From Patescibacteria group bacterium (GTDB taxonomy: Bacteria > Patescibacteriota > Patescibacteriia > PEXW01), in contig JBAYJA010000001.1 of the NCBI GenBank assembly GCA_041665345.1, positions 265,206 through 329,205 of the forward strand: 64,000 nucleotides of DNA, in the 5' to 3' direction. Position 1 is the first letter of the stretch; each line of letters begins with the position of its first letter. The translations under genes and the position numbers were made by a program. The notes under the pieces are model-generated. The model was given only the letters and a program-made list of their open reading frames with translations, searched no databases and was not told the origin of the DNA. Below, piece after piece: positions 945 to 27,266 of this stretch.

Positions 945-1286
945 TTAGCGCACCAGATCAACAATACCCTTGAAGGTTTCTGGGTAGAACTCTGCCAGCT
1001 GCGCCAAAATCTTCCGGTCAACTTTAATGTTGGCCTTGATGAGTTTGCCCATGAAGACACTGTAGGACATCTCATGCTGACGGGTGCCAGCGTTAATCTT
1101 CACTTGCCAGAGCGTGCGTGCATCGCGCTTCTTCAGGCGGCGGTGGATGTAGGCGTAGCGGCCGGCTTTGCGGACAGCAACTTTGGCCAACTTGATGCTA
1201 GATTTACGCTTCCAGCGGTAGCCCTTCGCTCGGGAGAGGAGGTTCTTGCGATGCTTGACGTGGGTTGTGCCTCGTTTGACGCGCAT
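945..1286 (-). CDS. rplT: 50S ribosomal protein L20
   Basis: MRVKRGTTHVKHRKNLLSRAKGYRWKRKS... is the typical L20 N-terminus and the length fits. Confidence 0.95.
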   Translation of the reverse strand: MRVKRGTTHVKHRKNLLSRAKGYRWKRKSSIKLAKVAVRKAGRYAYIHRRLKKRDARTLWQVKINAGTRQHEMSYSVFMGKLIKANIKVDRKILAQLAEFYPETFKGIVDLVR

Positions 1287-1292
1287 AGGTAC

Positions 1293-1490
1293 TTAGGCAG
1301 AAGGAGTAACCTGCATGATGGCTCGGAGATTGGTCTTATGCGCAGACACGTCCCGGCGCTTTTTCCGCGTGGTGGTGCCAGATTCCCGGGCATTGAAGTG
1401 GTCTTGCCCAGCTGCGCGACGCATGACGTTCTTCGCGCCGGTGCGGCGGAAGCGTTTGGCTGTTGCTTTGTGGGTCTTGAGCTTTGGCAT
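1293..1490 (-). CDS. rpmI: 50S ribosomal protein L35
   Basis: MPKLKTHKATAKRFRRTGAKN... It sits upstream of rplT in the conserved infC-rpmI-rplT order. Confidence 0.9.
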   Translation of the reverse strand: MPKLKTHKATAKRFRRTGAKNVMRRAAGQDHFNARESGTTTRKKRRDVSAHKTNLRAIMQVTPSA

Positions 1491-1902
1491 ACAGGACTAG
1501 AATGTAACGGTTTCTGGGGGATACGTCAAGGGGGAGGGGTGGAAGATTGAGGAAATTGGTTTGATTTGGATAAAGCCTAGTTCTTGTAGCACAGGCTTTG
1601 ACCGGTAAGGGTTACCCCACCTAACCTCCCCTTCGGAAGGGGAGGAAACGTACAAACAGACCTTGGTCTGTAATAAACAAAAAATTCCTCCCCTCTTTTG
1701 AAGGAGGGGGTAGGGGGAGGTAACCCTGATGAGTAGACCTTAGTATAAAAACCAGGAATGCAAAAAGAGCATAGACAGTCATCTTGGTTCCGTAATACAG
1801 CGGGATTGCCTGTCTCATTGGTAGACAGTTCGTGTTACACGACGCCGCAGCTTGGAGAAGCTGCTGCTTGAGGTGGGGTAACTGGCTTTACACCCTCCCC
1901 AC

Positions 1903-2424
1903 CTACTTTTTCTTTCGAATCAGCAGGGTCAGGCGGCCACCCATTTGGCTGACTGGTGCGTCCACCACCACCCCATCGCCCAGGCTGGCAATGAAGTCGT
2001 GGAGGATCTTCTTGGCCAAATCCGCCCGGGCGCGTTCACGGCCGCGGAGGATCATTTCCAGCTTCACTCGGTCACCCTTCTCAAAGAATTTTAGGGATTG
2101 CTCTTTCCGCATGTTCAGGTCGTGTGCGCCAATTTTCAGGGACAGGCGGATGCCCTTAATTTCTGAGACCTTGGTTTTCGCTTTCTGCTTGCGTTCGGCT
2201 TTTTCCTGCTGGTAGAGGTAGGAACCCCAGTCAATAATTTTGCAAATGGGTGGCTGGGCAATGGGGTTCACTTCCACCAGATCCAGCTCTTGCTCGCGCG
2301 CGTGCGCCAAAGCCTGCTCGGTGGTCATCGGGCCCAGGAATTTGCCGTCGGCGTCAATCACTTGCACTTGGGGAATGCGAATCTGCAGGTTGACCCGGAA
2401 GCGTTTGGTACTTATACGGATTAT
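1903..2424 (-). CDS. infC: translation initiation factor IF-3; the start is probably non-AUG (ATA or ATC)
   Basis: The ORF 1903..2367 matches the IF3 N- and C-domains. The frame stays open upstream to a TAA at 2428-2430 and reads ...IRIPQVQVIDADGKF, with only ATA/ATC candidates. IF3 classically uses AUU/AUA starts. Confidence 0.75.
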   Translation of the reverse strand: MIRISTKRFRVNLQIRIPQVQVIDADGKFLGPMTTEQALAHAREQELDLVEVNPIAQPPICKIIDWGSYLYQQEKAERKQKAKTKVSEIKGIRLSLKIGAHDLNMRKEQSLKFFEKGDRVKLEMILRGRERARADLAKKILHDFIASLGDGVVVDAPVSQMGGRLTLLIRKKK

Positions 2425-2612
2425 GGGTTACACGGAAGGAGATAAGGGGAGTATAGCAGATTTCAATTCGTTAAGCCCCATTTTGGGGATTGTACTCAGC
2501 TCTCCTTCACCCCGGTAAGTTCGTACACGCAAGACGAGCTGGTGCGAAATACTAACTCGTGTGCCCCTCGACTCCGCCCTTCGGCTGCACTCAGGGCTAC
2601 GCTCGGGACACC

Positions 2613-2640
2613 TCAAAAAGCGTCCATGGACGCTTTTTGA
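2613..2640 (-). terminator. palindromic hairpin plus U-run immediately after the proposed tmRNA 3' end
   Basis: aaaaagcgtccatggacgcttttt is a perfect palindrome flanked by A/T runs. Confidence 0.5.
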
Positions 2641-3038
2641 GGTGGAGATGAGGGGTCTTGCACCCCTGTCTAGTTCACCGCTGTTCTACTGGTCGACAGG
2701 TTTGGGCCGTTCAAAGGTGGAGGCTGCAGCGCACGGAATGGCCAAGCTCGCTACAACCCGACCTTACGGAGTTCTCAGTTACCGCCAGTAAGGGTAACGG
2801 TAACCCAGCCTGGAGTATGGCACTCGCGATTCCCGCACCAGGCTGCGGGGCGAATGGGTTGTCGGTTTTTAGGCGACGACCGGAGCAAACTGAGGCGCGA
2901 ACGCGTTAGCGAACGCAACCTTCACTTTGCTGACAAAAGACGTGGCAGTTGTCAATTGTCCAACAGTTTTACGCCATGTTGAACGCGGGCGACCTGCACA
3001 GCAGAGGACGAGCAAACTATCAACTTCTGAACATCCCC
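2641..3038 (-). ncRNA. ssrA: tmRNA (ssrA), one-piece
   Basis: It lies immediately downstream of smpB on the same strand. The 5' GGGGAUG pairs with the 3' CAUCUCC-A-CC, giving a 7-bp acceptor stem with a G3:U70 wobble (alanine identity). The T-arm is AGGGG-UGCAAGA-CCCCU. An internal frame ends GCU AAC GCG UUC GCG CCU CAG UUU GCU CCG GUC GUC GCC UAA, giving the tag ANAFAPQFAPVVA. A terminator follows. The region has no credible protein ORF. Confidence 0.55.
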
Positions 3039-3185
3039 GTTTAGAGAACCAGGGGTGATTCTGTAAACGCGAAGGTTCAGGGTGAGGTATGGGTAGTGGT
3101 GTGGCGGCGAGTATGGTCGTAGGGTAAGGTTGTGGGCTAACAGTAAACAAAACCTTATAACTCCACTCGCCGCAACACCCAAACC

Positions 3186-9170: not shown

Positions 9171-12100
9171 TTGTACAGTACATTTTGCACTTGTCTTGCT
9201 ATGGCCAACGCAGCATCACCGCAGAAACCAGCGCAGCAACCCACGCCCTTCCCCGCAATGGAGGAAGAGGTTTTAGATTTGTGGGATAAGCAGCAGGTCT
9301 TCCAGAAAACCTTGGCGCAAACCAAAGCGGGGAAGCCTTTCGTCTTTTTTGAAGGGCCACCAACGGCGAATGGCAAGCCCGGCATTCACCATGTGCTGGC
9401 GCGTGTGTACAAAGACGTCATTGTCCGCTACCAGACTATGCGCGGCAGGTACGTGGAACGCAAGGCTGGCTGGGACACGCACGGTCTCCCAGTGGAATTG
9501 CAAGTGGAGAAGCAGCTGAAAATCTCTGGCAAGCAGCAGATTGAGAGTTTGGTTCCAGGTAATCCAACGGCCAGCATTGAGAAGTTCAACAATGCGTGCA
9601 AAGAGAGCGTGATGCAATTCCGGAATGACTTTGAAGTGCTCACCCGGCGGATTGGTTTTTGGCTGGACATGGCCAACCCCTACGTTACCTACGATCCAGC
9701 GTATATCGAAAGTGTCTGGTCCATTCTGAAAACCGTGTGGGACAAGCAGCTCATGTACAAAGGCCACAAAGTGGTGCCGCATTGCCCACGGTGTGAAACC
9801 ACACTGTCCAGCCACGAAGTAGCGCAGGGGTACAAGAGCGTGGTGGATACGTCTGTTTATGTGCAATACAAGGTACAGAGCAGTCCCAATGCAGAAATCC
9901 AAAAATGTATTGATGATAAGGACAATGTTTTCATTCTCTCCTGGACAACCACACCGTGGACGCTGCCTGGTAACGTTGCTCTGGCAGTTGGAAAAGCAAT
10001 CACCTACGTTTTGGTGAAGCACGATGGTGTGCTACGCATTGTCGCGAAAGACCGCCTAGTCGTTCTGGGTGAGGATGTGAAAGTCCAAGCGGAGTTTTCT
10101 GGCGAGAGTATGGTTGGCACCGTCTACGAGCCACTGTTTGCTGGGGCAGTCGACAAAGGTTCGTCCACCACTGCCTGGACGGTCTTGGCTGCAGATTTCG
10201 TCACCACCACGGACGGCACGGGCGTGGTACACACCGCCGTGATGTACGGTGAAGACGACTACCAACTTGGGAAAGCCATGGGTTTGCCCATGCAGCACAC
10301 GGTTGACCAGAGCGGAAAGTTTTTACCAACCGTTACCAAGTGGGCGGGAAGGTTTGTGAAGAGTAAAGACGTGGAAGCTGGGATTATCCAAGATCTGCAA
10401 GACCGGGGGTTACTGTTCCGCGCTGAACCGCACACGCACGACTACCCCTTCTGTTGGCGTTGCGATACGCCGCTGCTGTACTACGCGAAAGATAGCTGGT
10501 TCATTAAAATGTCTGCGTTGCGCGACCAGCTCCTGAAGAATAACGACGACATCACCTGGGTGCCGGGTCATTTGAAGCAAGGCCGGTTTGGGGAGTGGCT
10601 GCGTGAGGTGAAAGACTGGGCAATTTCTCGGGAACGGTACTGGGGCACGCCGCTGCCCATTTGGGAGTGCCAGCAGTGCAAGCACCAGGAAATGGTGGGC
10701 AGCTACGCTGACCTGCAAGCCAAGGCATCAACCTGGCCGTACTCTGCGCCCGAGCGCCAAATTTTTGTGATGCGCCACGGTGAGGCACAGGGTAATCTCA
10801 CCGGGACTGCACACACCTACATTGAAACCGATGTGAACGATCTGACCGACGCAGGAAAAGCACAGGCACGTGCCACCGCGGAAAAGCTCCACGGGAAAGT
10901 TGACCTCATTGTGACATCTGATTTTTTACGCGCAAAGCAAACTGCAGCGATGGTGAAGGAAATGCTGGGTGGTGATGTACAGGTCATTGAGGAACCTCGC
11001 TTGCGTGAAATCCAAGTGCATGAACATGAGGGAAAGCGCTGGGAAGCAATTTTTCAGCTGATGGGCGGAAATGTGGCGCGGGTAGATAAGCGGCATGGGA
11101 ATGCCGAAACCCTGCGGGAAGTTGCCATCCGCGTACGAGAAGCGGTGGATGCTTACCTCAACGCCTTTCCAGACAAGAGCATTCTCTTCATTTCGCATGG
11201 TGATCCACTGCTGGCTTTTGAATGGTTGCTGTCTGGCCAAGGTCCAGAGATGATTGAGCACCCAACCTACTTGAAAACGGGCGCGTACCGCGAAGTGACC
11301 GTCCACAGTATCCAACTGAATCCTCACCGACCATACATTGATGATGTGCAACTCGCCTGTCCAAAATGTCAGGGGACAATGGTTCGCATACCAGAAGTGA
11401 TTGACGTGTGGTTTGACGCCGGGTCTATGCCCTTTGCCCAGTGGCATTACCCCTTTGCAAACCAGGAGCGGGTTGACCAAGGCACGAACTTCCCGGCCGA
11501 GTACATTTCCGAAGGCATTGACCAGACACGCGGCTGGTTCTACACCCTGCTGGCTATTAGCACTTTGCTGGGCCGGGGCGCACCGTACCGCAACGTCATT
11601 TCCCTGGGGCATATCATGGACGCGAAGGGGAAGAAAATGTCCAAGTCCAAAGGCAACATTGTTGTGCCTGCAGCAGTGATTGACCAGTATGGCGCAGATG
11701 CGTTGCGGCTATACATGTTCACCATGAGCCAGGCCGGGGAGCCAAAGAACTTTGACGTACAGGGTGTGGATGAGGTAGTGAAGAAAACCTTGCTCATCTA
11801 CTGGAATGTGGTTACTTTTGCGACCACCTACGTGCCCAAGGAGCTGTGGGGGAATGCTGTCGCAGCACCAACCAATGTGCTGGATCAATGGGTGCTGGCC
11901 CGGCTGGGGCAGGTTACGCAGATAGTGACGGAAAAGTTGGAAGCCTTTGATCCAACTACCGCTGGCCGCGCCTTGCGAGATTTCATTACTGACCTTTCTA
12001 CCTGGTACCTCCGCCGCAGCCGCGATCGTTTGCGGCCAGGGGAAAGTTTCTCCACCGAAGCCGGGGCAACCCTCGTTTCGGTAATTCGCGCCACTGCGGT

Positions 12101-12743
12101 GTTGCTTGCGCCTTTTGCGCCGTTCATTGCGGAAAAAGTGTACCAGACCTTGCGGCAGGAAGCAGACCCCGAGAGCGTGCACCTGGTTCCGTGGCCTGCA
12201 GCGCAACCGTATGATGAAAAAGTGCTGACCAACATGACCCAGGTTCAGAAGATTGTTGAGCTGGGTCACGCCATTCGGAAAGAGCAGAATTTAAAAATCC
12301 GTCAGCCGCTGGCCACGTTGGGAACGTCGGTGCAACTTCCGGAGGCGTACCACGACATTCTCGCCAGTGAAATGAATGTGCTGCAGATCACGGCGGGCGT
12401 TGCGATACCCGCAGCCTTTGCTCAAAAAACTGCTGGTGAGGTAACCGTTGGTTTGGATACGCAGCTCACCGAAGAATTACAGCACCAAGGTCTGGTGCGT
12501 GAACTGGCGCGGCATGTGAATGATTTGCGAAAAACCGCCGGCTTCACCGTGCAGGACGTGGTGGATGTGGAATGGCAGACTGATGATGCAACACTCCAGC
12601 ACGCGTTCACTGAGCACGCCAAAGAACTGCAAGAGCTGACGCGCAGCAATACCATTCGCGCGGGTTCGGTAACCAACGTTGCGAGCAAGAAAGAGCTGCT
12701 CTTGGGTGGCGCGCGGGTAACCTTTGGCATTCGCAAGCCATGA
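9171..12743 (+). CDS. ileS: isoleucyl-tRNA synthetase, type 2 (eukaryote/archaea-like), carrying an inserted domain
   Basis: PPTANGKPGIHHVLARVYKDVIVRYQTMRGRYVERKAGWDTHGLPVE matches the type-2 IleRS HIGH region. KMSKSKGN is the KMSKS motif. A CxxC...CxxC knuckle is present. The real start may be M11 or M30. Confidence 0.9.
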   Translation: MYSTFCTCLAMANAASPQKPAQQPTPFPAMEEEVLDLWDKQQVFQKTLAQTKAGKPFVFFEGPPTANGKPGIHHVLARVYKDVIVRYQTMRGRYVERKAGWDTHGLPVELQVEKQLKISGKQQIESLVPGNPTASIEKFNNACKESVMQFRNDFEVLTRRIGFWLDMANPYVTYDPAYIESVWSILKTVWDKQLMYKGHKVVPHCPRCETTLSSHEVAQGYKSVVDTSVYVQYKVQSSPNAEIQKCIDDKDNVFILSWTTTPWTLPGNVALAVGKAITYVLVKHDGVLRIVAKDRLVVLGEDVKVQAEFSGESMVGTVYEPLFAGAVDKGSSTTAWTVLAADFVTTTDGTGVVHTAVMYGEDDYQLGKAMGLPMQHTVDQSGKFLPTVTKWAGRFVKSKDVEAGIIQDLQDRGLLFRAEPHTHDYPFCWRCDTPLLYYAKDSWFIKMSALRDQLLKNNDDITWVPGHLKQGRFGEWLREVKDWAISRERYWGTPLPIWECQQCKHQEMVGSYADLQAKASTWPYSAPERQIFVMRHGEAQGNLTGTAHTYIETDVNDLTDAGKAQARATAEKLHGKVDLIVTSDFLRAKQTAAMVKEMLGGDVQVIEEPRLREIQVHEHEGKRWEAIFQLMGGNVARVDKRHGNAETLREVAIRVREAVDAYLNAFPDKSILFISHGDPLLAFEWLLSGQGPEMIEHPTYLKTGAYREVTVHSIQLNPHRPYIDDVQLACPKCQGTMVRIPEVIDVWFDAGSMPFAQWHYPFANQERVDQGTNFPAEYISEGIDQTRGWFYTLLAISTLLGRGAPYRNVISLGHIMDAKGKKMSKSKGNIVVPAAVIDQYGADALRLYMFTMSQAGEPKNFDVQGVDEVVKKTLLIYWNVVTFATTYVPKELWGNAVAAPTNVLDQWVLARLGQVTQIVTEKLEAFDPTTAGRALRDFITDLSTWYLRRSRDRLRPGESFSTEAGATLVSVIRATAVLLAPFAPFIAEKVYQTLRQEADPESVHLVPWPAAQPYDEKVLTNMTQVQKIVELGHAIRKEQNLKIRQPLATLGTSVQLPEAYHDILASEMNVLQITAGVAIPAAFAQKTAGEVTVGLDTQLTEELQHQGLVRELARHVNDLRKTAGFTVQDVVDVEWQTDDATLQHAFTEHAKELQELTRSNTIRAGSVTNVASKKELLLGGARVTFGIRKP
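10755..11315 (+). other. histidine phosphatase (PGAM/SixA-like, RHG motif) domain inserted inside ileS
   Basis: VMRHGEAQGN...LTDAG..QA....KL....DLIVTSDFLRAKQTA...ISHGDPL gives RHG, the RAxQTA arginine and the second HG histidine in the right order. It sits exactly between the IleRS segments ...KASTWPYSAPE and LNPHRPYIDDVQLAC. Confidence 0.7.
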
Positions 12744-13724: not shown

Positions 13725-14540
13725 ATGTTATTCCAACCAACCGTCACACTGCGGCTGAATTGCTGCCGTGGCAACCACAAAACCGGAGAAATCATTACCG
13801 CAGTTGATGACAACACCATTGTTGATTGGGAGAAGAATGAACTCTCCGTACCAAAGGAGCCCACAAATGCTTGGTGTGAGCAACGGGAAGGTACGAAAGA
13901 ATTTGTAATGATTCCAGTGTACTGCAAAAAGTGCAATGCCTGGACTATCCACTGGTACTCTTCTGTAGTCGGTGGAGGCACCTGGCAAACTGTGGAACCT
14001 CACTCGTACAAACGATCATTGCATTTCATGTATCGATCATCCACAGATGAGTGCATTAGTACGAAACTCAATCAGCCAGTCTCGGATCTGATGAATGTAA
14101 GTGCCGGGGGTTTCGAGTACCTTTTTGCGACAAATCCAAAGGATAATTGGTTCATCCTTCAGACCTATCAAACTCTTCTCCGCCATTTTTGTGTGTACGC
14201 AACAAGTATTTGGCCAAGATGGGCTTTGGAAAAATGGATTAGAGATGAAGAATCACGACGTTTCCCCAAAAGTTTGGAAATGCTGCAGAAGAATGATCGG
14301 CAAATTGTTGATTACCAGGCTCTGTCGAATGTCGTTTTTGAGTGCGTTGTTGAATTACACCGGCTGCAAGGGAGCATTCAATCACCAACAATTGCGGAGG
14401 TGCGGAAGCGGTTGCAGACCGTGTTAGTTAAGGCTGATGGAGGGTTTGTCACTCAGCTTTCAATGGCAAATGTGCCATTCGTTAGTGCAACCCCAGTGCA
14501 GGTTGTGAAATTGCCTGCAGAACAGGCTGACGAGAAGTAG
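13725..14540 (+). CDS. hypothetical protein (low-GC ORFan)
   Basis: ORF with about 46% GC against about 56% in the flanks. No motif recognised. Confidence 0.45.
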   Translation: MLFQPTVTLRLNCCRGNHKTGEIITAVDDNTIVDWEKNELSVPKEPTNAWCEQREGTKEFVMIPVYCKKCNAWTIHWYSSVVGGGTWQTVEPHSYKRSLHFMYRSSTDECISTKLNQPVSDLMNVSAGGFEYLFATNPKDNWFILQTYQTLLRHFCVYATSIWPRWALEKWIRDEESRRFPKSLEMLQKNDRQIVDYQALSNVVFECVVELHRLQGSIQSPTIAEVRKRLQTVLVKADGGFVTQLSMANVPFVSATPVQVVKLPAEQADEK

Positions 14541-14571: not shown

Positions 14572-16698
14572 ATGCAGTCCCGGTTTTTCTTTTCCGAATC
14601 CCGGTTTTTCGCTATACTGCATGGCACTATGGCAAAACCGAAGGCAAGCACAGCAAAGCGCGTCCCAATCCGAAAATTGAAGTCTGCCGAACCAGACGAA
14701 TTGCCAGAAAAGCTGGAAGTTGATGCAGCTGACGAAGCGCAGGAGGGTACAACCCCTGTGCATGCGGAGGCTCAGCCGGATGAGGATGTGGAGGCTGATG
14801 ACGAGCAAGACGAAGCCCCAGTGCGTATGCGCGGGGATGTTTTGGATGCCATTTACAAACCTGTGCCAGGTGACGACGATGACGAAGAGGAATCGTCACA
14901 GGATCTAAAAAAAGCCATGCCAAAGTCCAAGAAGAAGCGCCGGCTGATTATTCTCTTCGTCGTGCTTGGGATCCTGGCCGGTGCAACGTTGGCCGGGTAT
15001 TTAGTTTTCCGTTCTTCGTCACGGTTCAGTGAGCGAGTGCAGCTCACGGCGAAAGCCCCAGCAGGCATTGCCGCTGGCGATGAGGTTTCCGTTGTGGTCA
15101 CGGTTACCAATGAAGAGCAGATTGCTTTGCAGAATGCGGAGCTCACGCTCACCCCGCCAGAAGGCTTCACCTTTGCCTCTAGCCAGCCTGCTGCTTCAAA
15201 CGAATTCAACAATGCTTGGCACCTGGGAACGTTGCAGAAATCAGCCGGCACTACCGTAACGGTGAAGGGCCGCTTGGTGGGCGAGCAAGACCAGGAGAAA
15301 GTGTTTCGGTTTACCTTGGGCTACCGGCCGTCCAACTTCAACTACGATTTCCAAAAAAATCTGGAAGTGACGGTACGCATCAGCAGTTCCGTGCTGCAAC
15401 TGCAGCCCGATGTGCCGCTCCGGGTTACCCCTGGGGTGCAGACCCAAATCCCCATCGTGGTTCTGAACACGGGTTCAGCAGCGCTGGAAGACATCCGCCT
15501 AGTCGTGGAGTATCCCAGTAGCTTCACCTTTGGCAGTGCTACGCCCAAGCCAAGCCGGGAAGAAAATATTTGGGACATTGCCAGTATTCCAGCGAAAGGC
15601 CAAACGAAGATTACGGTTACCGGAGTCATCCAAGGAAATGTTGGCGATACTCCCGAATTCAAATTCCGCGCTGGCCGGGTGCTCACCGGCGAGTTGCAGG
15701 TGCAGGCTGAGGCGAGCGGGATTGGTACGTTGGTGCAGCCTGGCTTGCAAGTCACCCTCAATGTGACCAACCCAGGTGGCGGCACCGTACTGTCGTGGGG
15801 TGACATGCTGAACCTCTCTATTAGTTACAAAAATGAAAGCGAGAGCAACATGCAAGACGTGACCATTGTTGCAGAGCTGCGGGAGAAGAATGGCGGCGGG
15901 AAAGATGTAAAGATTTTTGAACTCGACGATCGATCCGATGTGCAGAAGGGGACGCTGTCTGGCCGCACGTTGACGTGGACGAAAGCCCAAGTGCCTGGTT
16001 TGGCAAAAATTGAACCAGGGAAGGGTGGCGACATTCTCCTCCGTCTCCCGGTTCGTTCCGGGCCGGACATTACGGAACAAGGCGACAAGAACTTTACCTC
16101 CACCATTGCGGTTCGGGCGTCCGTAGGCAGCATGGATGATGTGACGGGTAAGAATTTTGAAACCCAGGCCAAACCCTTGGAAACCAAGTTTTCCACCAAG
16201 CTCAACGTGGAACCGGAGGGGAGGTACTACAGTGATGAGCAGGTACCCATTGGTGCCGGACCACTGCCACCGCAGGTTGGCAAAGAGACGACGTACGAAA
16301 TGAGCTGGACCTTGACCAACGCCACCAATGAAACCACGCAAATTGTGGTAAGCGCAACGTTGCCAGATGCAGTGGTATGGACTGGCGTACAGAGTGTTAC
16401 TGCGGGCCAAGCAGTGACGTTTGATCCGACGACGCGGGAAGTGAGCTGGCGGGTGAACCGGGTGCCACCAGGCACTGGGAGTTTGTTCGCCAGTCTGGAA
16501 GCGAAGTTTCAGGTGAAAGTCACCCCAGTTGCCACGGATGTGGGCAAGCTCCTGTCCTTGCTTGGGCAAACTGTTGCCACAGCGCGGGACGAGTTTACGA
16601 CCCAAGATTTGCGGGTGGAAAAAGCGATCATCACCAGCGATTTACCAGGTGACGTTGCCGCGCAGGGCAAGGGGTTAGTTGTCGAAGCAACGCCGTAG
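14572..16698 (+). CDS. large membrane-anchored surface protein with repeated beta-sandwich (DUF11/CARDB-like) modules
   Basis: An acidic N-terminus, one TM helix (RLIILFVVLGILAGATLAGYLVF), then about 550 aa of repeated V/T/G-rich modules. The probable start is the MAKPK codon at 14629. Confidence 0.55.
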   Translation: MQSRFFFSESRFFAILHGTMAKPKASTAKRVPIRKLKSAEPDELPEKLEVDAADEAQEGTTPVHAEAQPDEDVEADDEQDEAPVRMRGDVLDAIYKPVPGDDDDEEESSQDLKKAMPKSKKKRRLIILFVVLGILAGATLAGYLVFRSSSRFSERVQLTAKAPAGIAAGDEVSVVVTVTNEEQIALQNAELTLTPPEGFTFASSQPAASNEFNNAWHLGTLQKSAGTTVTVKGRLVGEQDQEKVFRFTLGYRPSNFNYDFQKNLEVTVRISSSVLQLQPDVPLRVTPGVQTQIPIVVLNTGSAALEDIRLVVEYPSSFTFGSATPKPSREENIWDIASIPAKGQTKITVTGVIQGNVGDTPEFKFRAGRVLTGELQVQAEASGIGTLVQPGLQVTLNVTNPGGGTVLSWGDMLNLSISYKNESESNMQDVTIVAELREKNGGGKDVKIFELDDRSDVQKGTLSGRTLTWTKAQVPGLAKIEPGKGGDILLRLPVRSGPDITEQGDKNFTSTIAVRASVGSMDDVTGKNFETQAKPLETKFSTKLNVEPEGRYYSDEQVPIGAGPLPPQVGKETTYEMSWTLTNATNETTQIVVSATLPDAVVWTGVQSVTAGQAVTFDPTTREVSWRVNRVPPGTGSLFASLEAKFQVKVTPVATDVGKLLSLLGQTVATARDEFTTQDLRVEKAIITSDLPGDVAAQGKGLVVEATP

Positions 16699-16701
16699 GA
16701 T

Positions 16702-18753
16702 ATGTCTGTGAAGCGATACAAACTCTACCTCGCTTCAGGAATTCGGTTGTGGACCATGTACTTTCAAAAGGCGTACACACCCTTTTTTAATCGAAAAGTT
16801 GATCTCTTTCAACCGGCATTGATTGATAAACAGTATACTGGTGATCATCGGAATATTCCCATTCGGATAGCAACGAAAGATCTGGGGGAAATTAATGCTT
16901 GTGATGCAATTTTGGCGTACATGAAGATGTACGATACCCAGGATAACGGACCAGCTGGGACGGATAGCACTTGGGAGTGTGGGTATGCTATTGGTAAGGA
17001 AAAACCTACCATTATGATAGTTGAGGACATTCAGCACTTAGACTACTACTCAGCGCAGTGGATGGTGACTTTTAGCATCGGAGCAATCTTGACAACGGAT
17101 AAACAAGTCGCTGAACAAGCGAAAAATCACGATAAGTTTACACACACGACAATACTCTATTGTGACTCAAAAGCGCAGTTTGAGAAGAAAATCATTGCGT
17201 ACCTTGATCAGTACTACAAGTCCATCTACGCGCGGGAGGGGATAATAAACTACTCGGTTGATCAAGAGCTTCGGGCGTACAGCCAGCAATCGTATATTTC
17301 GGGAATCCTTTCTAAGTGTCACACCACAGCATTTTCAAGTTTTGGGGCTGATGCAGAAATATTTGAAAAACAATTTTGCGCGCTCTACGGCCAAAAGAAA
17401 TTCAAGGCGAATACTGCAACCTATCAGGCCGTATGTAACCACGAAATAGAACGCGCGAGGATTGTACAAAAAATTATAAGAAATGATGTTAAAGATGTGG
17501 TGCCATTTTTACAAACTTATATTCGCCAGGCCATACAAAGTCTTGAGGGGAAACCAAGCATCAATAAGGTTGCACAAATGATTTCTTACTGGCTGCAAAT
17601 CCCAGCGGAAGCAGTCAAAGGCCACAAGCAGGGAAGGAAGAAAACTCGACCTGCTATCTTTTTTGAACTTCACGATTTGGTTAGTCATCACGTAGTAGCG
17701 ACAGATCGCTACTTTGGTGAGCACTTCGTTTACCAGGCTGGTGCGGTGTTGGAGGTATACAATTGGCTGAACACGTACGCCATTGATGATGTATTCGATA
17801 ATTCCCGCACGCGACAAGGGCAGTTGACGTTACATGAAAAGTATAATAGTCGAAAAAATGCCATCCTACTCGGAAGTATTGGGCACTGCCTTTCACTTAT
17901 TTTGCTGCATGGATTGACAAAAGAGAAACCCGTTGTCGCTATGTCTCTCCTCCGCGCCCTCAACGATGTGCAGTTTGTCATGTACCATGGTCAGCAGCTT
18001 GACCTACGCTTAAGTTTTTCCTCTCCGAAGTCCCTTCAAACATATCTACGCGGCCATTCCTTGCATTCCGCAATGGAGGATTATTTTTCTCGTATTTATG
18101 GGATTTGCGGTTCATTTTATGAAGAGATTGGCCGAATGGCAATGCGGTCAACAAACGTGGGGGCGCAATTTTATAACCAGAAAGCTGCGGAGGACGCATG
18201 CATTACTATTGCAAAATACTTCGGCTTAGTACAAATGATCCGGAATGACTTAGGTGATTTACTCCTACCCGAAGACCTTTCAGGAATGAGTAAAGGTATG
18301 AAAGATACCTCCCATAATGATGTCATGGAAGGGAAGTTGACGCTGCCTATATTGTATACATTGCTCAATAAACGGACCACGAGCAAAGACCGGAATATTT
18401 TCATTCATCTCATAGGAAAGCAACATTTGACGGCAAAGAATCGGAAAGATATTAGCCGAATCATTTGGGAAAGCGGCGCTATCGAATACTGCCTGCAGTT
18501 TGTTGCATACTACGCAAAGCAGGTGCGCGAGCAGTATGTAAAGCATATCCATGAAACTCCAACACGGTTAAAGTGGATTCTCAAACTTATGGATGTTACA
18601 CCTTTAATAAACGTCACCTTTCGTCGAATAGCTATTACTAACGGTTGGCGAAAACTAGAACTTGAGCCCCTCGCGTCGGAGTACCTGTTGAAAATTGAAA
18701 AGTTGACTACCCGTGAGGCGTTCTTAGCGGCTTTTTCTCGTAAGAGAAGCTAA
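16702..18753 (+). CDS. fusion protein: N-terminal nucleoside 2-deoxyribosyltransferase-like domain plus C-terminal trans-isoprenyl diphosphate synthase-like domain with a degenerate second Asp-rich motif
   Basis: NDT-like blocks: YLASG...PFFNRK and GTDSTWECGYAIGKEKPTIMIVED, the catalytic Glu block (compare NDT ...GMELGYA...K.V....P). Isoprenyl-diphosphate-synthase blocks: QGRKKTRPA, IDDVFDNSRTRQG (FARM), GQQLD, VQMIRNDLGD (SARM with DD changed to RN), MEGKLTLPILY. GC is about 42-45%. Confidence 0.6.
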   Translation: MSVKRYKLYLASGIRLWTMYFQKAYTPFFNRKVDLFQPALIDKQYTGDHRNIPIRIATKDLGEINACDAILAYMKMYDTQDNGPAGTDSTWECGYAIGKEKPTIMIVEDIQHLDYYSAQWMVTFSIGAILTTDKQVAEQAKNHDKFTHTTILYCDSKAQFEKKIIAYLDQYYKSIYAREGIINYSVDQELRAYSQQSYISGILSKCHTTAFSSFGADAEIFEKQFCALYGQKKFKANTATYQAVCNHEIERARIVQKIIRNDVKDVVPFLQTYIRQAIQSLEGKPSINKVAQMISYWLQIPAEAVKGHKQGRKKTRPAIFFELHDLVSHHVVATDRYFGEHFVYQAGAVLEVYNWLNTYAIDDVFDNSRTRQGQLTLHEKYNSRKNAILLGSIGHCLSLILLHGLTKEKPVVAMSLLRALNDVQFVMYHGQQLDLRLSFSSPKSLQTYLRGHSLHSAMEDYFSRIYGICGSFYEEIGRMAMRSTNVGAQFYNQKAAEDACITIAKYFGLVQMIRNDLGDLLLPEDLSGMSKGMKDTSHNDVMEGKLTLPILYTLLNKRTTSKDRNIFIHLIGKQHLTAKNRKDISRIIWESGAIEYCLQFVAYYAKQVREQYVKHIHETPTRLKWILKLMDVTPLINVTFRRIAITNGWRKLELEPLASEYLLKIEKLTTREAFLAAFSRKRS

Positions 18754-18874: not shown

Positions 18875-19447
18875 ATGAAGGAAAAGATCATTTCCAACTT
18901 CGTACCCTTCCCTCAGTGTCCGTACACCGACGCCCCCTATGTGCTGTGGTTTTTTGCACAACGGTATCTGCAAGTGCAGCATCACGTGCCTGAGTACTAC
19001 CTGTACAAGTGCGAGCTCGAGCGAGATTACATTAGCGGCCTATTTCAATTGCAGCAGGCTTGCTTGCGCGCAGAAGCGGTGAGTACAGACGATATTCTTT
19101 TTCAGGAAGCGGGTACTATTGCGCAGCATATTCTTGCAACGAGTAGTTTTAAGGATTTTCGGGGTAGGAGACAGCGTTACACCAGGCGGTTTTGGCGAGC
19201 TACTGAGCGATTACTAGCAATTACCGAATACCTGCAGATCCCCATACAATTGCAGGACATACGGTCTCATCAGTGGCTCATCGTTGCCAATTTTGCACAT
19301 GCCGCAGGGCTTCAAGGATCAGCATTCTTACGCTACGTGCAAAGATTTGGCGAAGAAGCAATTCAACGTCTGGTTATTCATAACGCAGGAGACCTATACT
19401 CCACGGTTATGCGGGAACGGGACACAAATGCAAGAGTACGTTGGTAG
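18875..19447 (+). CDS. hypothetical protein
   Basis: ORF only. It is in the same lower-GC patch as the fusion gene. Confidence 0.4.
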   Translation: MKEKIISNFVPFPQCPYTDAPYVLWFFAQRYLQVQHHVPEYYLYKCELERDYISGLFQLQQACLRAEAVSTDDILFQEAGTIAQHILATSSFKDFRGRRQRYTRRFWRATERLLAITEYLQIPIQLQDIRSHQWLIVANFAHAAGLQGSAFLRYVQRFGEEAIQRLVIHNAGDLYSTVMRERDTNARVRW

Positions 19448-19636
19448 TGCAGCAGAGTCTGCTCCGTTTCATTAATATGGAACGGAGTTTTTTTATAATG
19501 ACGAATGTACGTCCGCCAGAGGCGGATCTACCTCCCTCTGGGGTGGAACCCGGGTTTGAGACTGGCGGAAATAGGGATAGGGGAGGGTTTCGTTGGTGCG
19601 GCTACGGGAGGGTAAAGTGGTATACTGCAAATACCC

Positions 19637-22925: not shown

Positions 22926-23321
22926 GTGCCCTTTATTATTACCGCATTAAAACAATGTAGCGCAGAAACGTGGAGAAAATTCCATCAGTTGTACCATGGC
23001 GATGCCAGCCTCATAGAGCTTCAAGAGAAGTACGGGTTGGTCGGGAAGGTTGACTGGCGTACAGATACCAATTGTAAAGCCGCCAAGCGTGGTGGAATAG
23101 CAATTACATTTGTACGGATCCTCAAACCGGATGAATCGCCTGAACCTTTACCGCCAGGTTTCCTTGAAGAAGCAACGCTCCGTCTGCGCGCTTTGTATCG
23201 AAAAACTCCTTTCCCAGTCTCCTTTCATGTTCATCCTACTGGTATGACCCTGGAAGAGATACAAGCAGAGCAGAAGAGCTGGAATGTGTACTGTGAAATG
23301 GCCTGGGCTGCGTCTGGGTAG
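22926..23321 (+). CDS. hypothetical protein (GTG start, RBS aaggagg)
   Basis: ORF with a strong SD 7 nt upstream. It is low GC. Confidence 0.45.
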   Translation: MPFIITALKQCSAETWRKFHQLYHGDASLIELQEKYGLVGKVDWRTDTNCKAAKRGGIAITFVRILKPDESPEPLPPGFLEEATLRLRALYRKTPFPVSFHVHPTGMTLEEIQAEQKSWNVYCEMAWAASG

Positions 23322-23436: not shown

Positions 23437-24609
23437 ATGGAAAAGTTTGGTGGAAAGCAGGAGCGCCGTATTCCCGTCATTATTGAAGATGGGAAACGCG
23501 TGCCAATGCTGGCACGGCGACTGTTCGACAGCTCGCTGCATGTCATTACTGAGTCTGGAAAGTACCAGGGCTGGATGACGCACCCAAAGTGGGATGTGAC
23601 TGCAGCGCAGAAGAGGAGCAAGAAGTTTATCCCAAGTAATGTAGCGCACATCCCTGTCCCAGACGTGTACTGGCAGTATCGGCTGTTCACGCATGGCACG
23701 GAAAGGTACCAGCAGGATAAGCATGGAGAAATTCCACGCTTAGTGCAATCGTTGCAGCACCTGCATGAGTTGCACGGTTTACTGTTGGGAAATCTGGATT
23801 CACGCCGTATTGATTTGCTACGCCAGGAAATCAAGCGTGAGGTGATTGCGGTTGTTGCGTTTTTGGGTCCCAATGCCAATGAAACCCAAAAGAAACGCGC
23901 AATTAAACAGGCGATTGCCGTGGCTATCGGTAAAGATAGTTTAGATCGGTTCAACCCGGGTGCTTTTGCCGCCAGAATCGTGACGGCCATCAATGCAGTA
24001 CTCATTCGGGAAAGCGATGCAATTTCCATCAACGCAATTTTCGCACAGTGGCGACGGTTGGATCAATCCATGCTCTGTGTTATGGAATTTGAAGTTGACG
24101 CGCAGTACAGCTTTTTGCAGCGTGTCCTTTCCGAATGGGACAATCTTGTTCGGGATCGTCAGTCCGCTTTGCGCCGCAGACTTGTGAACAATGCAAGTTT
24201 GGTGCAAGCGTATGACTTGAATCCATTTCGTGAGACCTTCACGTACGTGGCACAGGAGTATGCGGAAGCGGAAAGCTTCTTGGCATCAAATCGGCCCTCG
24301 CTGGCCAAACCCTTGCTGGAAACAGCCTACGCAAGTTTGGGTCTGCGAAAAATTCGGGTGCAACTGGAAGCAGCAATGCTGATGGTGAGCCGGAAAGTGC
24401 GTTTTCCCATTGTGCCGTTTCCTTGGCCAAATGTTCGAAGTGGCATTAGCTCGAGCATCACCGAAATTGAACATCTGCAAACGAAGCACATGCGGGCATT
24501 TGATAAGCCCCTGGTTATTGCTGGGTTGCGAGATACAATTGGTCGCCTTGAGACATCAGCGTACGAGGATGCCCATGACCGTTTCCGGCAAACCATTCGC
24601 CTCATCTAG
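23437..24609 (+). CDS. hypothetical protein
   Basis: A 390-aa ORF with no recognisable motif. Confidence 0.45.
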   Translation: MEKFGGKQERRIPVIIEDGKRVPMLARRLFDSSLHVITESGKYQGWMTHPKWDVTAAQKRSKKFIPSNVAHIPVPDVYWQYRLFTHGTERYQQDKHGEIPRLVQSLQHLHELHGLLLGNLDSRRIDLLRQEIKREVIAVVAFLGPNANETQKKRAIKQAIAVAIGKDSLDRFNPGAFAARIVTAINAVLIRESDAISINAIFAQWRRLDQSMLCVMEFEVDAQYSFLQRVLSEWDNLVRDRQSALRRRLVNNASLVQAYDLNPFRETFTYVAQEYAEAESFLASNRPSLAKPLLETAYASLGLRKIRVQLEAAMLMVSRKVRFPIVPFPWPNVRSGISSSITEIEHLQTKHMRAFDKPLVIAGLRDTIGRLETSAYEDAHDRFRQTIRLI

Positions 24610-24741: not shown

Positions 24742-24836
24742 CGGGAATTAGTTCAGTCGGTAGAACGCTCTTTGCTCGCATCGATTGAGAGCTTTACGAG
24801 CACGGAGAGGTCACAGGTTCAAGTCCTGTATTCCCG
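24742..24836 (+). tRNA. tRNA-like element (type II-like, 95 nt) with an expanded anticodon-loop region. It may be a pseudo-tRNA or a tRNA with a short insertion.
   Basis: Acceptor CGGGAAT/ATTCCCG, D-arm GTTC-AGTCGGTA-GAAC and T-arm ACAGG-TTCAAGT-CCTGT are all canonical. The anticodon stem GCTCT/AGAGC encloses a 14-nt loop and the variable region is about 21 nt. No clean 7-nt anticodon loop is found. Confidence 0.4.
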
Positions 24837-24845
24837 AAAAAAATT

Positions 24846-25647: not shown

Positions 25648-26967
25648 ATGTCCGAACCCACGAAAATGGAAGTGCTCATGTCCTTTGCCAAGCGGCGGGG
25701 TTTTGTGTTCCCCACGGCGGAAATCTACGGCGGCCTGCAGGGCTTCTGGGATTGGGGTCCGTTGGGTGTGGAATTTAAGAACAATATCAAGAAGGAGTGG
25801 TGGAAACACTTTGTTCAAGGCCGGGCAGATGTGGTGGGCCAGGATGCCGCCATCGTGACCAACCCCACGGTATGGCAGAAGAGCGGCCACGTGCAGGGAT
25901 TTGCGGACAAGTTGGTGGAGTGCAAGGCGTGCCACCATCGCTTCAAAGGGGATGATCTGATGGATCATACCAAGTGCCCAGACTGCGGTGGGCAGCTTAC
26001 CGGGGAGCGGGATTTTAACACCATGTTCACCACGCATGTGGGGCCGGTGGAAGATACTGCTGCCACGGTGTTCATGCGGCCAGAAACTGCCCAGAATATT
26101 TTTGTGAACTTTGATACCGTGCGGCAAACCATGCGCCTAAAGCTGCCGTTTGGCATTGGGCAAATTGGCAAAGCTTTTCGGAACGAAATTACGCCGGGGA
26201 ATTTCATTTTTCGTTCCCGAGAGTTTGAGCAAATGGAATTGGAATTTTTCTGCCACCCAGGTGAGGATGACCGGTGGTTTAAATATTGGTGTGAGGAAAG
26301 TTTGCAGTGGTTCCTGGATTTGGGCATCAAAGCAGACCACCTGCGTTTCCATGAACAGTCAAAGGCCGAGTTGGCACACTACTCCAAGGCCACAACGGAT
26401 ATTGAGTACAATTTCCCTTTCGAAAAGGGTTGGTCAGAACTCATGGGTATTGCGAACCGCACGGACTTTGATTTGAAAGCACACGGCCAGTCCTACCGCG
26501 ATGACAAAACCCCAGAGGCAATTGTGCCGTACTGCATTGAACCATCAGCGGGTGTAGACCGGGCAGCGCTCGCATTTTTGTTGGATGCGTACGAAGAGGT
26601 TGAAGGTGGCCGGTCAACCACAACTGAGGCAAACAAGGAAAAAGAAGTCGTCTTGCGTTTGCACAAAAATTTAGCACCCATCAAAGTCGCCATTTTGCCT
26701 TTGTCTAAGAAAGAGCCACTGGCTGGGAAGGCGCAGGAAATTGCCGCAGAACTCCGCAAGCACTGGACCGTGATGTACGACGACAGTCAGTCCATTGGCC
26801 GCCGCTACCGGCGACAGGATGAAATTGGCACGCCATACTGCGTGACCGTGGATTTTGACACGCTTGAGAAAGACCAGAAAGTCACCGTCCGCGACCGGGA
26901 CACCATGGCGCAGGAGCGGGTGGGGATTGGGGAGCTAGAAGCAGACTTGAAAAAGCGATTTGCGTGA
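25648..26967 (+). CDS. glyQS: glycyl-tRNA synthetase (dimeric class II type)
   Basis: MEVLMSFAKRRGFVFPTAEIYGGLQGFWDWGPLGVE is the canonical GlyRS N-terminus. The start is placed at MSEPTK, and the 25492 extension is rejected. Confidence 0.85.
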   Translation: MSEPTKMEVLMSFAKRRGFVFPTAEIYGGLQGFWDWGPLGVEFKNNIKKEWWKHFVQGRADVVGQDAAIVTNPTVWQKSGHVQGFADKLVECKACHHRFKGDDLMDHTKCPDCGGQLTGERDFNTMFTTHVGPVEDTAATVFMRPETAQNIFVNFDTVRQTMRLKLPFGIGQIGKAFRNEITPGNFIFRSREFEQMELEFFCHPGEDDRWFKYWCEESLQWFLDLGIKADHLRFHEQSKAELAHYSKATTDIEYNFPFEKGWSELMGIANRTDFDLKAHGQSYRDDKTPEAIVPYCIEPSAGVDRAALAFLLDAYEEVEGGRSTTTEANKEKEVVLRLHKNLAPIKVAILPLSKKEPLAGKAQEIAAELRKHWTVMYDDSQSIGRRYRRQDEIGTPYCVTVDFDTLEKDQKVTVRDRDTMAQERVGIGELEADLKKRFA

Positions 26968-27266
26968 GTCGTCAGCAGCATATTCATCAGGAAGAGTTCC
27001 CATACCTACTAACTACTATTGTTCGAAACCGGGCAAAGTTTTTTCGGGAAGAAAAATGGGCTCGTGAACTCTCGGTTATTATTCGTCGAGCGTGCGTGCT
27101 ACATAAATTTTCATTGCTGGCATATGCAATTATGCCTGATCATTTACATTTAATTGTTTACCCCAACCAAGCGCAGGCCTCTGTGCCTGCGTCTCTTGAA
27201 ATTGAACGCGCGGGCAGAGACGCCCGCGCTGGTAGGGCGTATTTTGATAAACAAAAAGCCGAGTGA
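26964..27266 (+). mobile_element. truncated IS200/IS605-family (Y1/RayT-like, HUH) transposase remnant
   Basis: FPYLLTTIVRNRAKFF...LLAYAIMPDHLHLIV matches the Y1-transposase N-terminal half including the HuH motif. The ORF ends at about 100 aa, before the catalytic-Tyr helix. Confidence 0.55.

Follow-up and report, generated by a model that had tools for sequence, protein, structure and literature searches.

A nucleoside deoxyribosyltransferase-like domain fused to an isoprenyl pyrophosphate synthase-like domain in Patescibacteria and DPANN-type archaea

Domain architecture and active-site motifs

The window analysed here, which is the whole stretch of 64,000 nucleotides taken from a Patescibacteria group bacterium (assembly GCA_041665345.1, contig JBAYJA010000001.1, positions 265,206 to 329,205 of the forward strand), contains a gene that joins two enzyme folds. 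This gene is the sole long open reading frame (ORF) reported at positions 16702-18753 of the forward strand and it comprises 683 codons. An initial annotation, made from the letters alone, had named the two parts as a nucleoside 2-deoxyribosyltransferase (NDT) fold and a trans-isoprenyl pyrophosphate synthase (IPPS) fold, and both names have been borne out by Pfam, by an AlphaFold2 model and by fold comparison, while the motifs it quoted are all present where it had placed them. The model was built from a 40-sequence family alignment (mean predicted local distance difference test score 88.4, predicted template modelling score 0.88), and residue invariance was likewise scored on an alignment of 40 family members. 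The parts of the protein are as follows (aa, amino acid residues; FARM and SARM, first and second aspartate-rich motif).

16702..18753, + strand: whole ORF, 683 aa, with NDT-like domain, helical linker and IPPS-like domain
16702..17220, + strand: NDT-fold domain (N-domain), aa 1-173, in which six beta-strands and helices alternate
16717..16752, + strand: YKLYLASGIRLW, aa 6-17, 'Y-L-A-G/S' strand, the equivalent of the Tyr-containing first NDT strand; W17 invariant
16894..16926, + strand: NACDAILAYMK, aa 65-75, aligning with the 'cDAvia' Asp block; N65 invariant, D68 at least 90% conserved
16957..17007, + strand: GTDSTWECGYAIGKEKP, aa 86-102, catalytic-Glu block, with E92 in alignment with the Glu nucleophile of NDTs
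17221..17484, + strand: helical linker, aa 174-261, confidently modelled, most variable in sequence, no family match
17485..18750, + strand: trans-IPPS-fold domain (C-domain), aa 262-683, from Pfam, the AlphaFold2 model and Foldseek
17632..17652, + strand: GRKKTRP, aa 311-317, region I (equivalent to GGKRxRP); K313, K314 and R316 conserved
17758..17784, + strand: YNWLNTYAI, aa 353-361, helix immediately before the FARM; Y353, N354, W355, N357, T358 and Y359 invariant
17785..17820, + strand: DDVFDNSRTRQG, aa 362-373, intact FARM; D362, D363, D366 and R371 invariant
18091..18123, + strand: RIYGICGSFYE, aa 464-474, in place of canonical G-K-T-G, with Lys-Thr replaced by invariant I468-C469 and G470 kept
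18232..18273, + strand: QMIRNDLGDLLLPE, aa 511-524, pseudo-SARM N515-D516-x-x-D519; Q511, M512, R514, N515 and D516 invariant
18289..18345, + strand: SKGMKDTSHNDVMEGKLTL, aa 530-548, region VI or lid loop; K534, H538, D540 and K545 invariant

The N-domain has a flavodoxin-like alpha/beta fold that is closest, by fold comparison, to solved NDTs, and it carries the Tyr, Asp and Glu set of these enzymes at the expected places, with the nucleophilic Glu lying in an E-x-G-Y/F-A block, the Asp in a block upstream of it and the Tyr in the first strand. Y9 is at least 90% conserved in 40 full-length sequences and invariant in N-domain alignments, and D88, W91, E92, G94, Y95, K101 and P102 are invariant in the GTDSTWECGYAIGKEKP block. 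Sequence searches of the N-domain against PDB were weak (E ~0.3-0.5) and only fold comparison resolved its identity; the weak alignments (HMMER, 6qai and 2a0k) still put E92 on the catalytic Glu and D68 on the 'cDAvia' Asp of the Leishmania/Trypanosoma enzymes. In comparison with the NDT/PTD, DNPH1/Rcl and MilB/BlsM enzymes (PF05014), whose Asp-to-Glu loop is two residues longer, the N-domain has the family-specific invariant aromatics W17, W91 and W120, and the linker stands in the place of the C-terminal residue that in NDTs completes the neighbouring active site.

The C-domain is matched by Pfam polyprenyl_synt (PF00348) over residues 310-579 (E=1.9e-17, 63.8 bits, cut-off 27), and Foldseek against PDB with the AlphaFold2 model returned only trans-IPPS structures (template modelling score 0.70-0.75, normalised to target), the closest being geranylgeranyl diphosphate (GGPP) and long-chain synthases. 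It has in common with the canonical trans-IPPS of PF00348, which comprise farnesyl diphosphate (FPP), GGPP and long-chain synthases, the fold, the region I Lys/Arg, the FARM with its Arg, GQxxD and the GK-T of region VI. It differs from solved synthases in three changes that the alignments show to be fixed family-wide: the SARM is NDxxD instead of DDxxD, G-K-T-G has become G-I-C-G, and the canonical RRG reads RQG (R371-Q372), its second Arg being replaced by Gln. Thus profile, fold and FARM agree with a chain-elongating enzyme, whereas the SARM, the Lys-Thr pair and the second Arg do not. Further differences from canonical synthases are 260 additional N-terminal residues, a patchy distribution and an unusually polar and aromatic set of invariant residues before the FARM, in a helix that in IPPS is the site of the chain-length residues. 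F365 and Q431/D434 are also invariant or nearly so (n=40), and residues 527-535 were modelled with low confidence, as is expected of a mobile lid.

The initial annotation had described the SARM as crippled, with its two Asp residues turned into Arg-Asn. This reading was off by one in register, and only the first Asp is changed (NDLGD in this protein). N515 is invariant in 40 of 40 aligned sequences and in all 16 complete fusions found in GTDB genomes, D516 is invariant as well, D519 is at least 90% conserved in the 40 sequences, and the same NDxxD occurs in active ComQ-type prenyltransferases. A degenerate SARM was accordingly rejected on account of the invariance of the Asn across the family, and this residue is, judged from the alignment, a selected feature and not a sign of decay. 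Given the conserved NDxxD, the suggestion that the C-domain merely binds a pyrophosphate-containing ligand becomes less likely than an active prenyl-transfer site, and the pattern of motifs as a whole argues for a prenyl-diphosphate site that is active but repurposed.

It could be argued that the protein is an ordinary short-chain prenyl diphosphate synthase (FPP/GGPP) of reduced genomes that has acquired an unrelated accessory domain. In favour of this are the conservation of region I, FARM, GQxxD and region VI, the structural comparison, in which GGPP and long-chain synthases came out best, public annotations that name the homologues 'polyprenyl synthetase family protein' or 'geranylgeranyl pyrophosphate synthase/nucleoside 2-deoxyribosyltransferase', and a UppS gene located 10 kb from the fused gene in one genome. 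On the other hand, no curated equivalog for FPP, GGPP or long-chain synthases was matched in NCBIfam, the best scores being 20-42 bits against cut-offs of 383-600; the D to N, K-T to I-C and R to Q replacements were held fixed once they had arisen; 21 loci in 185,579 species representatives are too patchy a distribution for a housekeeping enzyme; and the association of unfused N-domain genes with UbiA genes, described below, would be left unexplained. An ordinary synthase is therefore quite improbable.

Distribution, composition and surroundings of the fused gene

A search of 5.8 billion proteins retrieved at least 53 full-length homologues (35-67% identity), all with the same architecture, and all those with a source name are assigned to Patescibacteria lineages. 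In a profile search of 1.84 billion cluster representatives the full-length form corresponds to ~3 clusters at 50% identity, and a pattern scan of the 185,579 species-representative genomes of GTDB found 21 loci, namely 16 complete fusions, two cut by contig ends and three stand-alone N-domain genes. Some of the fused loci are archaeal, among them L027, flanked by a CDC48-type ATPase and DUF7343, L006, flanked by a tRNA-splicing endonuclease, and L015, labelled Nanoarchaeota; the fused family thus spans bacteria of the candidate phyla radiation (CPR) and DPANN-type archaea. The chimeric assembly that the initial annotation had wished to exclude is contradicted by two samples, ERZ27249449 and SRR6484324, whose separate assemblies contain the identical 681-aa product, by the 16 complete fusions in GTDB genomes and by the homologues, which come from many studies, share one architecture and align continuously across the junction. 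Chimerism was rejected on these grounds, and an artefact of assembly or gene calling joining two genes, for which the low GC of the region speaks and nothing else, has a practically negligible probability.

A more distant locus, L044, presents the two parts in separate frames: at 1092-3099 an ORF for a divergent NDT-like domain shares 26 nt with a second ORF that encodes the linker and the IPPS-like part, the overlap lying at an A6 run, and the removal of one A from this run joins them in frame, with the junction matching that of the family and NDLKD at the SARM position. A true split gene was rejected in favour of a 1-nt slip in the A6 run, and L044 is probably a divergent fused lineage, in which the frameshift is likely to be a sequencing error, a pseudogene or slippage. 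Other members with peculiarities are L022 and L023, two fused copies on one Buchananbacteria contig (CAIOLF010000046.1, 22027-38545 and 70530-87048) with opposite orientation and identical length and composition, which represent a large inverted duplication or an assembly artefact, and L016 and L019, which lie in metagenome-assembled genomes (MAGs) labelled 'uncultured Gammaproteobacteria', a label that the SecY and GT2/HAD flanks of L016 do not settle.

With regard to composition, the fused gene has 43.5% GC against 52.2% for the window, and its GC content at third codon positions (GC3) of 0.466 compares with an average of 0.597 in the neighbours and is the lowest value among ten genes (z ~-2). 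The GC3 of the fused gene is ~0.29-0.50 in 15 of the 17 loci tested, while in the archaeal L027 and L028 it is ~0.70 and matches the hosts; in the higher-GC hosts (L001, L007, L018, L020 and L022) no gene of the neighbourhood, or only one, has a lower value, and in L006, a host of low GC, the value is exceptionally high (z = +2.6). Total GC lies under that of the flanks in 16 of 18 fused loci, yet GC3 lies under the neighbour mean in only 9 of 17, indicating that part of the low GC is due to amino-acid composition and weakening low GC as a proof of recent transfer. The GC3 pattern, taken together with the patchy and cross-domain distribution, makes horizontal movement of the fused gene plausible. 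To this extent the acquisition put forward by the initial annotation stands; as a proven event it does not, and no tRNA or mobile element was found abutting the fused gene, nor any viral contig carrying it.

The same patchiness, the compositional discordance with hosts and the presence in two domains of life may bring to mind a conflict or defence effector, in which an NDT-like nucleotide-degrading toxin would be joined to a sensor or regulatory helical domain and move among CPR and DPANN organisms. NDT-like effectors occur in retron and other defence systems, and toxin-type genes (Zeta_toxin, AbiEii) are close to some members. However, the fused gene and five neighbours gave no PADLOC match (E<=1), a multigene defence architecture or conserved partner was seen in 0 of 21 loci, and no viral contig carries the gene. 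The C-domain, moreover, has a full set of metal- and diphosphate-binding residues that a mere sensor would not need, and the stand-alone form of the N-domain is located in lipid-enzyme operons, so that a role in defence is very improbable.

Clustering of flanking ORFs over the 21 loci found no conserved neighbour of the fused gene, and a conserved operon around it was rejected, as there is only local synteny between close relatives. Neighbourhood conservation, raised by the initial annotation as something to check, is therefore absent, also for the downstream 190-aa ORF. Nor was any UbiA or canonical IPPS gene found within 8-10 kb of the fused genes. Within the window the immediate surroundings are the following.

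14572..16698, + strand: DUF11-repeat surface protein gene, upstream, ending 3 nt before ORF 16702
18875..19447, + strand: 190-aa ORF, downstream, no family match
19461..19488, + strand: terminator-like hairpin downstream of the 190-aa ORF, its 12-bp stem preceding a T run

The true start of the fused gene may be the GTG at 16708, which has AGGA 7 nt upstream and would fit the 681-aa product called for the identical protein P0001; the starts of homologues coincide with the ATG form of ORF 16702, and the difference between 683 and 681 aa is trivial. The DUF11 gene may be co-transcribed with ORF 16702, and the hairpin may be the end of a transcription unit starting at the DUF11 gene, the number of terminator-like sites in the region being not above chance. 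The DUF11 gene was not found as a conserved neighbour in other genomes of the 21-locus clustering, and the 190-aa ORF, which is not conserved next to homologues there, is probably outside the system.

Several other features of the window deserve mention. Four ORFs (13725-14540, 18875-19447, 22926-23321 and 23437-24609) gave, as far as they were scanned, no match in Pfam, NCBIfam or PADLOC, and their GC3 of 0.46-0.55, against 0.61-0.68 in adjoining housekeeping genes, means that an atypical composition is not unique to the fused gene. An isoleucyl-tRNA synthetase gene (9171-12743, + strand) is interrupted midway by a His_Phos_1 domain with the motif FVMRHGEAQGN, which is uncommon as an insertion in aminoacyl-tRNA synthetases. 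A predicted tRNA-Ala(CGC) at 24742-24837 (+ strand) is, with 96 nt, ~20 nt longer than normal and may hold an intron or insertion. Approximately 8 kb downstream of the fused gene, at ~26964-27266 (+ strand; L001 20257-20559), a small IS200/IS605-type Y1 transposase ORF lies directly 3' of a class II aminoacyl-tRNA synthetase gene (Pfam tRNA-synt_2b and HGTP_anticodon) in a kilobase of 46.4% GC.

Stand-alone N-domain genes and their UbiA neighbours

The profile search of 1.84 billion representatives also returned short proteins of 163-193 aa that match the N-domain only (E 1e-38 to 1e-57). They align with it end to end at 33-45% identity and retain Y9, W17, H49, D88-S89, W91-E92, K101 and W120-M121, and homologues of this kind have precomputed PF05014 and PF15891 matches. 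With ~31 clusters at 207-265 bits and a gap down to generic NDT-like proteins at ~40 bits, the stand-alone proteins are, by similarity score, a discrete family.

UbiA genes abut the stand-alone N-domain gene in seven of seven independent arrangements with readable flanks; L010 and L041 were left out of this count as too short to judge. The arrangements are listed by locus.

L008, archaeon: N-domain gene beside UbiA and two canonical IPPS genes, in the vicinity of an FMN_dh-family gene and an HD gene
L029, Saccharibacteria: three complete tandem UbiA genes and a partial fourth at the contig start, then N-domain gene
L030, Patescibacteria: two UbiA genes, N-domain gene, then an Lnt-like gene
L031 and L047, Paceibacterota: UbiA, then N-domain gene
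L036, metagenome: UbiA, N-domain gene, UbiA, UbiA
L037-40 and L048-49, metagenome: N-domain gene, UbiA, UbiA
L042, metagenome: UbiA, then N-domain gene

The N-domain homologues were thus found only fused to an IPPS-like domain or directly beside UbiA genes, and never alone in a salvage context as NDTs are. From this it follows that the NDT-like module is a partner reserved for prenyl-diphosphate enzymes, which here have two different folds. The idea, already present in the initial annotation, that the two halves act jointly in isoprenoid-linked chemistry has in this way gained independent genomic support. The UbiA-superfamily partners are integral membrane prenyltransferases of another Pfam family encoded by separate genes, whereas the C-domain is soluble and fused.

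The UbiA partners from CPR organisms have intact NDxxDxxxD and DxxxD motifs. An attempt to place the partners in a named UbiA subfamily failed, since all NCBIfam scores were below cut-offs and only unnamed 'prenyltransferase' models were matched. In L029 (21-3691), directly upstream of the NDT-like gene, all UbiA paralogues carry NDAFDYETD motifs. The archaeal L008 (9508-11754, - strand) forms a compact isoprenoid cluster with two tandem canonical IPPS paralogues whose C-terminal halves are near-identical; its FMN_dh-family gene is presumably IDI-2-like. An Lnt-like membrane acyltransferase and an AMP-binding-like protein accompany the stand-alone gene in three arrangements (L030, L036 and L037/L048), where a recurring CPR operon (L030 4979-10082, L036 1686-7857, L037 2640-8240 and L048 3748-9246) contains the AMP-binding-like protein (~410-444 aa, below the Pfam cut-off), the Lnt-like acyltransferase (LNT_N and CN_hydrolase), two to three tandem UbiA genes and the stand-alone NDT-like protein. 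These surroundings are those of membrane lipids and not of nucleotide salvage, and the operon looks like an undescribed membrane-lipid modification pathway.

One may also consider that the NDT-like module transfers a pentose to polyprenyl phosphate, in which case a (deoxy)ribosyl or phosphoribosyl intermediate linked to Glu92 would be resolved by the lipid phosphate to give a lipid-linked pentose, similar to decaprenyl-phospho-ribose, with the IPPS-like or UbiA partner supplying or holding the lipid. The UbiA partners, however, score only ~29 bits against phosphoribosyltransferase models compared to 140-180 bits against unnamed 'prenyltransferase' models, and a soluble IPPS-like domain with altered elongation residues would be a poor source of long polyprenyl phosphates. 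To our knowledge no NDT-family enzyme uses a phosphate acceptor, which speaks against pentosyl transfer as well, and this explanation is improbable.

Proposed chemistry and significance

It has been shown that IPPS-fold enzymes combining an intact FARM with a pseudo-SARM are prenyltransferases for acceptors other than isopentenyl diphosphate (IPP) (bioRxiv 10.64898/2026.08.29.745113). The same work gives the pseudo-SARM of the ComQ family as 'NDXXX'; in StheQ it consists of N215, D216 and D219, with no metal seen there, and its Asn matters for the prenylation of the Trp indole (bioRxiv 10.64898/2026.08.29.745113). In Ord1, farnesyl thiodiphosphate is bound at the FARM, the pseudo-SARM contacts the diphosphate directly and there is no condensation of isoprene units (PMC12510300). 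ComQ, StheQ and PalQ as well as XiaM and Ord1 share the IPPS fold with a FARM and an NDxxx pseudo-SARM, and the C-domain has the same combination. It differs from them in sharing its polypeptide with an NDT-like domain and a helical linker, and from StheQ, which keeps the Lys of the K-T pair (K174), in having Ile at this position. No gene for an acceptor peptide (ComX-like) and no biosynthetic cluster recurs beside the fused gene in the 21 loci.

In analogy with these enzymes, we tentatively favour, at somewhat less than an even chance, a soluble two-site enzyme that would couple cleavage or exchange of an N-glycosidic bond to prenyl transfer onto a non-IPP acceptor. The C-domain would bind a prenyl diphosphate through Mg2+ at the FARM, ionise it and hand the prenyl group to the acceptor, as ComQ, StheQ and Ord1 do with indole, with region I, through its conserved Lys/Arg, possibly fixing a phosphate on that acceptor. 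Glu92 of the N-domain would cleave or exchange the N-glycosidic bond of a nucleotide or nucleoside, either just before prenylation, so that a free heteroaromatic base or a new nucleoside would become the acceptor, or just after it, so that a prenylated base would be released. Overall, the reaction would yield a nucleobase or nucleoside carrying a prenyl group, and in the unfused systems a membrane UbiA enzyme would replace the soluble IPPS-like domain. A similar logic, in which a purine nucleotide is prenylated and N-glycosidic cleavage frees the base, operates in the cytokinin pair IPT and LOG; this is an analogy only, since both folds differ: IPT is of the P-loop type, LOG is a member of PF03641, and the fused protein matches neither family in Pfam.

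Several observations weigh against this coupled enzyme. The Pfam match of the N-domain to Nuc_deoxyrib_tr (PF05014, residues 30-114) is marginal, at 29.1 bits against a cut-off of 28.8, and the conservation of region I is what an IPP-using enzyme would also show. Ord1 is absent from the 29 PDB sequence matches of the C-domain at E<=0.01, among which canonical synthases score better. The kinship of the C-domain to ComQ and Ord1, the latter being the one compared, is thus apparently one of pattern and fold and not of close sequence, and convergence may account for the NDxxD that they have in common. R-N-D-x-x-D is present, too, in the stand-alone proteins most closely related to the C-domain, as in protein P0068 from a Micrarchaeia MAG (RNDLMD), and these relatives lack an N-domain and a neighbouring UbiA gene, indicating that a domain of this type can work alone. 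Finally, an Asp-to-Asn change at the first SARM position has been linked to irregular coupling in chrysanthemyl diphosphate synthase (PMC10960109), and it occurs in fungal terpene synthases similar to isoprenyl diphosphate synthases (IDS) that have lost coupling activity (PMC7484799).

The same natural change is also seen in uncharacterised mealybug FPP synthase-like proteins (PMC10960109), and all these proteins are eukaryotic and single-domain. The terpene-synthase forms have NDxxSxxxD/E and have lost the Arg of region I, which the C-domain keeps; accordingly, the signature of IDS-like or class I terpene synthases, an NSE/DTE triad ((N/D)Dxx(S/T)xxxE) together with loss of the IPP-binding Arg, was not found in it. 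Another explanation is that the N-domain is a regulatory or scaffold module that binds a nucleotide or oligomerises, with the IPPS-like domain or UbiA alone being catalytic. The NDxxD variants of irregular-coupling enzymes, and those of IDS-like terpene synthases, which act without a second substrate, lend some weight to it (PMC10960109, PMC7484799). Catalysis could then consist of prenyl transfer, irregular coupling or terpene-synthase-type chemistry. The occurrence of C-domain relatives without any N-domain points the same way, and association with two types of prenyl enzyme could reflect a common need for regulation. NDT-fold proteins are obligate oligomers, which would also suit such a module. 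A regulatory or scaffold function appears rather unlikely.

A literature search found no described enzyme with both folds, in line with the initial annotation, and nothing relevant on the fusion, on the link between N-domain and UbiA or on isoprenoid enzymes of CPR and DPANN organisms; as it covered few subscription-journal papers, this absence is no proof. Both domains belong to well-studied families and their pairing recurs, as a fusion, as a probable fusion in the divergent lineage L044 and as adjacency to UbiA. It is possible, if doubtful, that CPR and DPANN organisms share an unrecognised pathway in which an NDT-like N-glycosyl enzyme and a prenyltransferase, either fused (IPPS fold) or paired (UbiA), would make prenylated nucleobases or nucleosides, or nucleotide-derived lipid-linked pentoses, and there is a realistic chance that the fused gene marks a new pathway. 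As the protein is soluble and self-contained, the hypothesis is open to direct testing in vitro. If true, the coupled chemistry would widen the small group of IPPS-fold enzymes that prenylate non-isoprenoid acceptors and would give NDT-fold enzymes a role beyond nucleotide salvage and defence. The biochemistry of membrane and envelope has hardly been mapped in CPR and DPANN organisms, and the pairing hints that they contain a lipid-nucleobase or lipid-sugar metabolite; these ultra-small symbionts might use such molecules at their membrane or towards their hosts.

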